A stretch of 564 bases of DNA from a phage (EF517026.1), one strand, 5' to 3'. Shown: positions 1 to 564, counted from the stretch's first letter. Numbers and translations are program-made. The notes: generated by a model from the sequence alone, not told the origin.

Positions 1-564
1 CTGGGAAAAAGAAAACCCGCCAGTACAAGCAACTGGGTGTATAGCTTGCTTAGAGAAAGATGACCGTTATCCACACACTTGTAACAAAGGAGCTAACGAT
101 ATGACCGAACGTGAACAAGAGATGATCATTAAGTTGATAGACAATAATGAAGATCGCCCAGATGATTTGAATGGCTGCGGTATTCTCTGCTCCAATGTCC
201 CTTGCCACCTCTGTCCCGCAAATAACGATCAAAAGATAACCTTAGGTGAAATCCGAGCGATGGACCCACGTAAACCACATCTGAATAAACCTGAGGTAAC
301 TCCTACAGATGATCAGCCTTCCGCTGAGACAATCGAAGGTGTCACTAAGCCTTTCCACTACATGCTGTTTGACGACATTGAGGCTATCGAAGTGATTGCT
401 CGTTCAATGACCGTTGAGCAGTTCAAGGGATACTGCTTCGGTAACATCTTAAAGTACAGACTACGTGCTGGTAAGAAATCAGAGTTAGCGTACTTAGAGA
501 AAGACCTAGCGAAAGCAGATTTCTATAAAGAACTCTTTGAGAAACATAAGGATAAATGTTATGC
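1..564 (+). CDS. 1.7: Nucleotide (dTMP/dGMP) kinase, phage T7 gene 1.7-like; partial CDS truncated at both window edges (first full codon 2-4, last full codon 560-562)
   Basis: Seen in sequence: frame 2 has no stop codon from 2 to 564 (187 complete codons plus a partial gc- codon). In-window translation: WEKENPPVQATGCIACLEKDDRYPHTCNKGAND MTEREQEMIIKLIDNNEDRPDDLNGCGILCSNVPCHLCPANNDQKITLGEIRAMDPRKPHLNKPEVTPTDDQPSAETIEGVTKPFHYMLFDDIEAIEVIARSMTVEQFKGYCFGNILKYRLRAGKKSELAYLEKDLAKADFYKELFEKHKDKCY(A). The two other + frames stop early (TAG 42-44, TGA 61-63). From memory: T7 gene 1.7 is about 196 codons and its product occurs as a roughly 22 kDa and a roughly 18 kDa form from two in-frame starts. The window fits this, with about 8 codons missing upstream and the final codon plus stop just downstream. 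The product assignment is recollection and was not verified by any search. Confidence 0.8.
87..92 (+). promoter_or_regulatory. Shine-Dalgarno site (AAGGAG) for internal in-frame initiation at ATG 101-103, giving a shorter isoform of the same protein
   Basis: Seen in sequence: AAGGAG at 87-92, an 8-nt spacer (93-100), then ATG at 101-103 in the same frame as the long ORF. The 155-residue product from ATG 101 (assuming termination right after the window) has a calculated mass near 17.8 kDa by my hand computation, close to the roughly 18 kDa short form I recall for T7 gp1.7. Confidence 0.6.
548..552 (+). promoter_or_regulatory. Putative Shine-Dalgarno site (AAGGA) for a downstream gene starting at ATG 561-563
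   Basis: Seen in sequence: AAGGA at 548-552, an 8-nt spacer (553-560), then ATG at 561-563 in a different frame from the main CDS. That frame is open back to the TAG at 507-509, and 561 is its first ATG. Confidence 0.4.
561..564 (+). CDS. Start of a downstream gene overlapping the 3' end of the gene 1.7-like CDS (T7 gene 1.8-like?); only the start codon plus 1 nt is in the window
   Basis: ATG at 561-563 with an SD-like AAGGA 8 nt upstream. From memory, T7 has a small gene (1.8) whose start overlaps the last few codons of gene 1.7. Nothing of this ORF beyond the start codon is visible, so the call rests on the start signal alone. Confidence 0.3.

Follow-up and report, generated by a model that had tools for sequence, protein, structure and literature searches.

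An internal start codon in gene 1.7 of T7-type phages and a probable pair of nested nucleotide kinases

Can a small phage gene give rise to two nested proteins, one of them begun at a start codon well inside a frame that is already open? The question is raised by a 564-nt stretch of phage DNA (hereafter the window, meaning the whole stretch that was analysed), in which a Shine-Dalgarno (SD) hexamer precedes an in-frame ATG at position 101. The original prediction, made from the sequence of the window, was that one ORF yields two polypeptides, a long form starting upstream of the window and a short form starting at ATG 101. We now consider it highly probable that independent ribosome loading at the internal SD-AUG, together with a primary start coupled to gene 1.6, gives nested kinases of 196 and 155 aa, and that the internal start is the ancestral one and has been kept under selection.

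The locus and its internal start signal

The window is gene 1.7, the nucleotide kinase gene, of a T7 variant. It matches positions 8189-8752 of phage T7 with 98.8% nucleotide identity, within the annotated gene 1.7 (T7 8166-8756), and the encoded protein matches both phrog_2585 'nucleotide kinase' (E = 1e-85) and, over residues 122-184, PF11753 (DUF3310; E = 4e-22, 78.4 bits against a gathering cut-off of 24). The GenBank and RefSeq records of T7 contain a single gene 1.7 CDS with one annotated product. In T7 the gene follows gene 1.6 and precedes genes 1.8/2 in the class II region, an order that is the same in relatives. Its first eight codons are missing from the window; the primary ATG of T7, 23 nt ahead of base 1, follows AAGGAGGTG and shares bases with the stop codon of gene 1.6 (TGATG). 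At the other end, the stop codon of gene 1.7 falls just beyond the window, and the first bases of gene 1.8 (T7 8749-8895 in the T7 annotation) lie inside it, with an AAGGA SD at 548-552, an 8-nt spacer and an 8-nt overlap between genes 1.7 and 1.8, as annotated in T7. ORFs of 29-60 aa on the minus strand were set aside as mechanical, T7 having no annotated minus-strand genes. The features on which the analysis turns are the following:

2..100, + strand: segment unique to the long form (gp1.7 codons 9-41), with a coding signature
38..82, + strand: Cys/His 'knuckle' C21-x2-C24-x8-H33-x-C35 (codons at 38-40, 47-49, 74-76 and 80-82)
87..92, + strand: Shine-Dalgarno AAGGAG, within codons AAA GGA G(CT), i.e. 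Lys37 Gly38 Ala39
93..100, + strand: 8-nt spacer ctaacgat, A/U-rich and unstructured
101..103, + strand: ATG (T7 nt 8289), Met42 of the 196-residue gp1.7 and candidate start of the 155-aa short form (Met42-Ala196)
101..277, + strand: Cys-rich middle domain (residues 42-100), predicted N-terminal folded module of the short form
341..529, + strand: DUF3310 (PF11753) nucleotide-kinase core, common to both forms
561..563, + strand: ATG of gene 1.8, within the final codons of gene 1.7 (from the sequence and the T7 annotation)

Published work describes gp1.7 as a dTMP/dGMP kinase without a divalent metal requirement (PMC7693777), as dispensable for T7 in the laboratory and as an activator of the Avs5 defence protein (PMC11897194). 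The variant represented by the window differs from the T7 reference at seven positions (79, 153, 214, 313, 354, 478 and 520), and every difference is a G:C>A:T transition, read on the + strand as C>T in five cases and G>A in two; this pattern suggests that this T7 line was chemically mutagenised or affected by deamination. Only two of the seven change the protein across the window, giving G59D and S126F. The latter falls where the DUF3310 kinase domain begins (KPSHY), at a position conserved to 90% or more, and the kinase of this variant is possibly impaired. Over bases 60-530, no match of 99% or more was found in any phage record.

The hexamer, the 8-nt spacer and the ATG are present exactly as predicted, and the AAGGAG at 87-92 is the sole copy in the window. 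The hexamer alone is not above chance, with 0.40 copies expected per window and at least one copy in 69 of 200 shuffles. When AAGGAG is required to be followed by an ATG after 5-10 nt, 19 sites are found on the + strand of T7, of which 16 coincide with annotated gene starts and two are out-of-frame sites within genes 5 and 7; the last of the 19 is the Met42 site, the only such site that is in frame and unannotated. The description of the signal as strong and matching the consensus was slightly overstated. At Met42 the SD duplex energy of -7.9 kcal/mol compares with a median of -9.65 kcal/mol for annotated T7 starts, and the Met42 SD is thus only average for T7, although it has the same core and 8-nt spacing as the gene 10 site. 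Annotated T7 genes contain 317 internal in-frame ATGs, and in SD:anti-SD pairing Met42 is nevertheless 8th among them; of the seven sites ahead of it, one is the gene 4B start and three duplicate a real start at codon 2-3.

The mRNA around the site is unusually unstructured. To open positions -16 to +12 takes 5.2 kcal/mol for the window sequence and 5.9 kcal/mol for T7, compared with medians of 12.0 kcal/mol for internal ATGs and 8.7 kcal/mol for annotated starts in T7, and just 2.4% of T7 internal ATGs are more open. The sum of SD pairing and accessibility, -2.0 kcal/mol, puts Met42 in first place among 286 internal ATGs, ahead of gene 4B (0.2 kcal/mol) and within the range of annotated starts (median -0.4 kcal/mol). 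The same scan returned other high-scoring, unannotated internal in-frame ATGs in T7 (V01146, positions 31009, 32770 and 10895; our locus L028): codon 139 of gene 16, with TGAGGAGGG, a 10-nt spacer and an SD energy of -12.5 kcal/mol; codon 726 of the same gene, 2nd of 286 with a net energy of -0.6 kcal/mol; and codon 64 of gene 3.5, with an SD energy of -9.3 kcal/mol.

Consensus scanning of the window (not transcript mapping) revealed no T7 promoter at up to three mismatches and a single sigma-70-like match, at chance level and downstream of ATG 101. Terminator-like matches in the window were likewise at chance level, and neither an Rfam family nor a stable structure was found in it. Within the reach of these scans, nothing points to a short product needing a transcript of its own.

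Selection on the extension and on Met42

No stop codon interrupts the frame of ATG 101 between base 2 and the end of the window, and 33 sense codons stand ahead of the ATG, confirming the predicted upstream opening, and in T7 it is continuous to the primary start, where the pairing energy of AAGGAGGTG is -12.6 kcal/mol. To judge whether the upstream part is coding, codons were compared among 14 related genomes that share the N-terminal segment. Over codons -14 to -6 relative to Met42, pS is 0.56 and pN 0.03 (pN/pS about 0.06), and nearly all changes upstream fall in third positions: Tyr TAT/TAC, Pro CCA/CCG, His CAC/CAT, Thr ACC/ACT/ACA, Cys TGT/TGC and Asn AAC/AAT. By this measure the upstream codons of gene 1.7 are under strong purifying selection and are truly coding, which bears out the proposal of a long form that begins upstream of the window, 23 nt before its first base. 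The original prediction had named one way in which this could fail, namely that the true upstream gene might end at TGA 61-63 in another frame. Gene 1.6, however, ends 23 nt before the window, and TGA 61-63 lies in the frame of neither gene 1.6 nor gene 1.7, and the objection falls away.

The conservation of Met42 itself can be followed in 120 clusters of homologs, 50 of which, including K1F gp1.7 (155 aa), begin at the Met42 position, and 68 of which have an N-terminal extension ahead of it. Met occupies this position in 66 of the 68 extension-bearing clusters, a count that, like our other conservation statistics (14 DNA loci, 68 protein clusters), comes from related, recombining sequences and does not represent independent events; the two exceptions, P0106 and P0119, are both of different architecture. 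The Met49 position shows, as a control within the same protein, what usually becomes of a buried Met: Met is found there in only 15 of the 68 clusters, with Ile in 44 and Val in 6. Residue 39, whose codon supplies in its first G the last base of AAGGAG, is Ala in 53 clusters, Val in 11, Gly in 2 and Asp in 1, i.e. a G-initial codon is present in 67 of 68. At the DNA level, pS drops to 0.06 in the three SD codons, compared with 0.56 upstream and 0.43 downstream, the fifth lowest value among 71 runs of three codons. Codons +2 to +6 (Thr-Glu-Arg-Glu-Gln, window 104-121) show nearly no synonymous variation in a phylogeny-unaware comparison of the 14 relatives, as is expected of an initiation region.

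In several phages the homologue of Met42 is the start of the gene. The annotated kinases of Klebsiella phage KP32, Cronobacter phage vB_CtuP_B1 and Salmonella phage ST17 begin there (MTERE..., MTKHE... and MTNHK..., respectively), directly after the gene 1.6 junction, in the arrangement AAGGAGGT-N4-5-ATG. Furthermore, three genomes have a broken extension. In vB_EcoP-R1 a frameshift causes the upstream ORF to stop at an ATGA overlapping the internal ATG, in the Kayfunavirus EcoIv39_Milel there is a 2-nt deletion in the extension (MGCIACLER*), and in the T7 mutant clone T7_1t2 most of the extension is deleted, with gene 1.6 fused to the linker. The sequence aaAGGAGctaacRatATG is kept in all three and is the only route to the kinase. 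These homologous primary starts elsewhere, and the sole-start use where the extension is broken, support a short form initiated at ATG 101.

The broken extensions lie at 701-780 of L024 (OQ703102), 701-760 of L026 (OX460914) and 720-775 of L025 (OL964749). Two of the genomes are natural Kayfunavirus isolates with different frameshifts, for both of which sequencing error is a possible cause. The kinase is called from the internal ATG in the annotations of YZ1 and vB_EcoP-R1.

The SD is strongly conserved, yet with exceptions. Two metagenomic lineages (L029, 460-475; L030, 455-475) carry GGA>AGA (Gly38Arg), which converts AAGGAG to AAAGAG and leaves the ATG in place, indicating that strong internal initiation is not universally required. 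From these sequences it seems that internal initiation may have been tuned down in some phages.

Domain organisation and module fusion

The position of Met42 also coincides with a predicted change in the protein. In an AlphaFold2 model run on a 69-sequence alignment, which is poor overall (mean pLDDT 54.7), pLDDT is below 50 upstream and 65-90 in a compact domain from window residue 34, which is Met42, to about residue 92. A domain boundary placed exactly at Met42 is consistent with Met42 as a natural N-terminus. The middle domain that begins there has invariant Cys residues at window residues 63, 68 and 71 and a further one, at 59, that is at least 90% conserved. No solved structure with detectable sequence similarity to the window protein was found, and a Foldseek search of the model against the PDB gave no match below E = 6.8; the middle domain is thus an uncharacterised small domain with no PDB relative detectable by sequence or fold. 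Upstream of Met42, the spacing of the Cys and His residues in the knuckle suggests that it may bind metal.

Both Cys-rich modules occur elsewhere in separate genes. The C-x2-C...H-x-C motif (residues 21-35) forms the N-terminus of many gp1.7 homologs that have no middle domain, for example in Erwinia phage FE44, BA14, NC-A, 285P and at our loci L012 and L013, and the middle domain forms the N-terminus of the KP32/K1F-type kinase genes. T7-type genes contain both modules, with the SD-ATG exactly at the joint. The simplest reading of this arrangement would be an in-frame fusion of two allelic architectures in which the start signal of the downstream module was retained. A direct homology between the internal initiation region and the KP32-type gene 1.6/1.7 junction was considered and rejected, the similarity being confined to the SD itself.

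Fusions across the canonical junction, recognisable by the translated ...KEGVLM..., are found in P0068 and P0119, and with such further junction fusions the gene 1.7 locus qualifies as a mosaic hot spot. Mosaic N-termini were seen in P0119, P0068, P0106, P0096, P0120 and P0108 and at 1560-1680 of L012 and L013. In some gp1.7 homologs the knuckle is duplicated, with a translated gene 1.6/1.7 junction (...KEGVLM...) at the join, or is attached straight to the kinase; others have long extensions that are unrelated, or carry an additional Cys-rich insert ahead of DUF3310. Comparison of these sequences suggests recurrent recombination at a conserved ribosome-binding junction. A broader reading, which we think unlikely, is that T7-like phages use the N-terminal part of gene 1.7 as a cassette system, in which short Cys-rich modules with their own SD-ATG are shuffled between alleles by recombination at conserved ribosome-binding junctions and in-frame fusions produce sets of nested isoforms whose ratio is under selection. 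Such selection might arise if the extension alters oligomerisation, partner binding or recognition by a host sensor such as Avs5, which gp1.7 is reported to activate (PMC11897194).

The dual-start model, its alternatives and known systems

In the model that we favour, a single gene 1.7 mRNA would be translated from two in-frame starts. Initiation at the primary start, coupled to the gene 1.6 stop, would give the 196-aa long form, and ribosomes binding directly at AAGGAG(87-92)-N8-AUG(101), in unusually open mRNA, would give the 155-aa short form. The short form would lack only the 41-residue Cys/His extension and keep the middle domain and the DUF3310 core. Elongating ribosomes arriving from the upstream start could partly occlude the internal site. 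As to its history, AUG101 would be the original start of a 'middle domain + kinase' gene of the kind still found in other genera, and T7-type phages would have gained an extra N-terminal module in frame, the old initiation region staying under selection. The rank of Met42 among the internal ATGs of T7, its conservation in extension-bearing clusters and the low pS of the SD codons all argue for the second of the two polypeptides that had been predicted from this ORF.

Two forms of gp1.7 may already be on record. In a 2010 article in Mol Microbiol (77:492), Tran, Lee, Richardson and Tabor are said to have found that purified gp1.7 consists of two forms, of about 22.2 and 17.8 kDa, that either form alone has equal kinase activity, and that sensitivity to dideoxythymidine needs the C-terminal half only. 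The masses, reportedly 22,181 and 17,782, can be compared with computed ones of 22,184 Da for full gp1.7, 17,711 Da from Met42 and 16,807 Da from Met49. The full-length value fits, and the Met42 form falls 71 Da below the smaller of the two reported masses, so either these digits or the assignment to Met42 is imperfect; among N-terminal truncations between residues 31 and 50, none has a mass of exactly 17,782 Da. It is very likely that the two-form behaviour of T7 gp1.7 has already been published. A full-text literature search, whose reach did not extend to the original gp1.7 papers, returned nothing relevant on gp1.7 isoforms, internal starts or T7 ribosome profiling, and papers citing the gp1.7 work mention kinase activity, DUF3310, dispensability and Avs5 activation only. 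In line with the biochemistry attributed to the 2010 study, both proteins probably accumulate in vivo, and the long and short forms may, as the original prediction suggested, have distinct roles.

Could the SD-ATG instead be an undecayed fossil of the module fusion, with negligible internal initiation and only the long form of any consequence? The signal would then be explained historically, by homology to the KP32/K1F-type primary start, and the degradation of the SD in two lineages that have not lost the gene would fit, as would the one product annotated in public T7 records. However, a fossil would not be expected to keep Met42 invariant in 66 of 68 extension-bearing clusters, which span about 60-93% identity, while Met49 is freely Ile or Val, nor to suppress synonymous change both in the SD codons and in codons +2 to +6. 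Moreover, Met42 is the most initiation-competent internal ATG in T7, and two gp1.7 forms have reportedly been purified. Taken together, we regard the fossil as improbable.

A different role for the hexamer, in elongation or at the RNA level rather than in initiation, for instance by pausing ribosomes between two domains to help folding or by influencing mRNA stability, appears to us very improbable. A slowing of elongation has been proposed for internal SD-like sequences, and this one is located exactly at the predicted domain boundary, but such a role explains neither why the ATG 8 nt downstream is invariant nor why relatives and frameshifted genomes start from this ATG alone; it also leaves the low structure around the ATG unexplained, and no Rfam family or stable structure is present in the window. 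That only the short form is made, the frame upstream of ATG 101 being non-coding or a separate small ORF, we hold to be extremely improbable. This would agree with the annotation of the YZ1 and vB_EcoP-R1 kinases from the internal ATG, with the broken upstream frame of some genomes and with the many relatives that start at the Met42 position. It is contradicted by the upstream pN/pS of about 0.06 with its third-position changes in T7-type genomes, by a frame that stays unbroken back to the start overlapping the stop codon of gene 1.6, a start preceded by AAGGAGGTG, by the use of the same N-terminal motif as the N-terminus of kinase genes in other phages and by the position of TGA 61-63 outside both frames.

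We therefore return to initiation at both sites as the preferred reading. The case shows that a dual-start gene can be recognised from sequence alone, although for so well-studied a gene this adds little biology. What is added is the proposal that the internal start is the ancestral start of gene 1.7, kept under selection after an in-frame module fusion, an argument that to our knowledge was not part of the 2010 study, together with the observation that public T7 records still annotate one gene 1.7 product. As gp1.7 is reported to activate Avs5, a possible difference in function between the two forms may merit a modest follow-up.

Among known systems, T7 gp1.7 is the same gene as that in the window, which represents a variant with seven transitions. 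T7 gene 4A/4B offers a likeness within the same genome, with an in-frame internal AUG that likewise has its own SD inside a translated ORF and with a short form that, as proposed for gp1.7, is without a small N-terminal Cys-rich motif of the metal-binding type, although the gene 4 proteins (primase-helicase and helicase) and gp1.7 are unrelated. The zinc motif missing from the short gene 4 product is needed for primase activity, whereas we know of no gp1.7 activity that depends on residues 1-41. The two internal sites also differ, the gp1.7 site having a weaker SD (that of gene 4B is -11.6 kcal/mol) and a much more open mRNA (5.9 versus 11.8 kcal/mol). The gene 1.7 products of KP32 (Przondovirus), K1F and other Kayfunavirus members are orthologous kinases whose genes likewise lie between genes 1.6 and 2. 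Their sequences open with MTERE... or MTTYD... at the homologue of T7 Met42, which follows the gene 1.6 junction (AAGGAGGT-N5-ATG) and is their only start; having no extension, they would have no nested isoforms. Outside this group, infB (the IF2 forms), clpB (93/79 kDa) and lambda S (S107/S105) each give two nested products from one ORF by independent initiation, and gp1.7 would resemble them in having N-terminally nested forms. The lambda S starts are two codons apart and their products antagonistic, whereas no regulatory antagonism is indicated for gp1.7.
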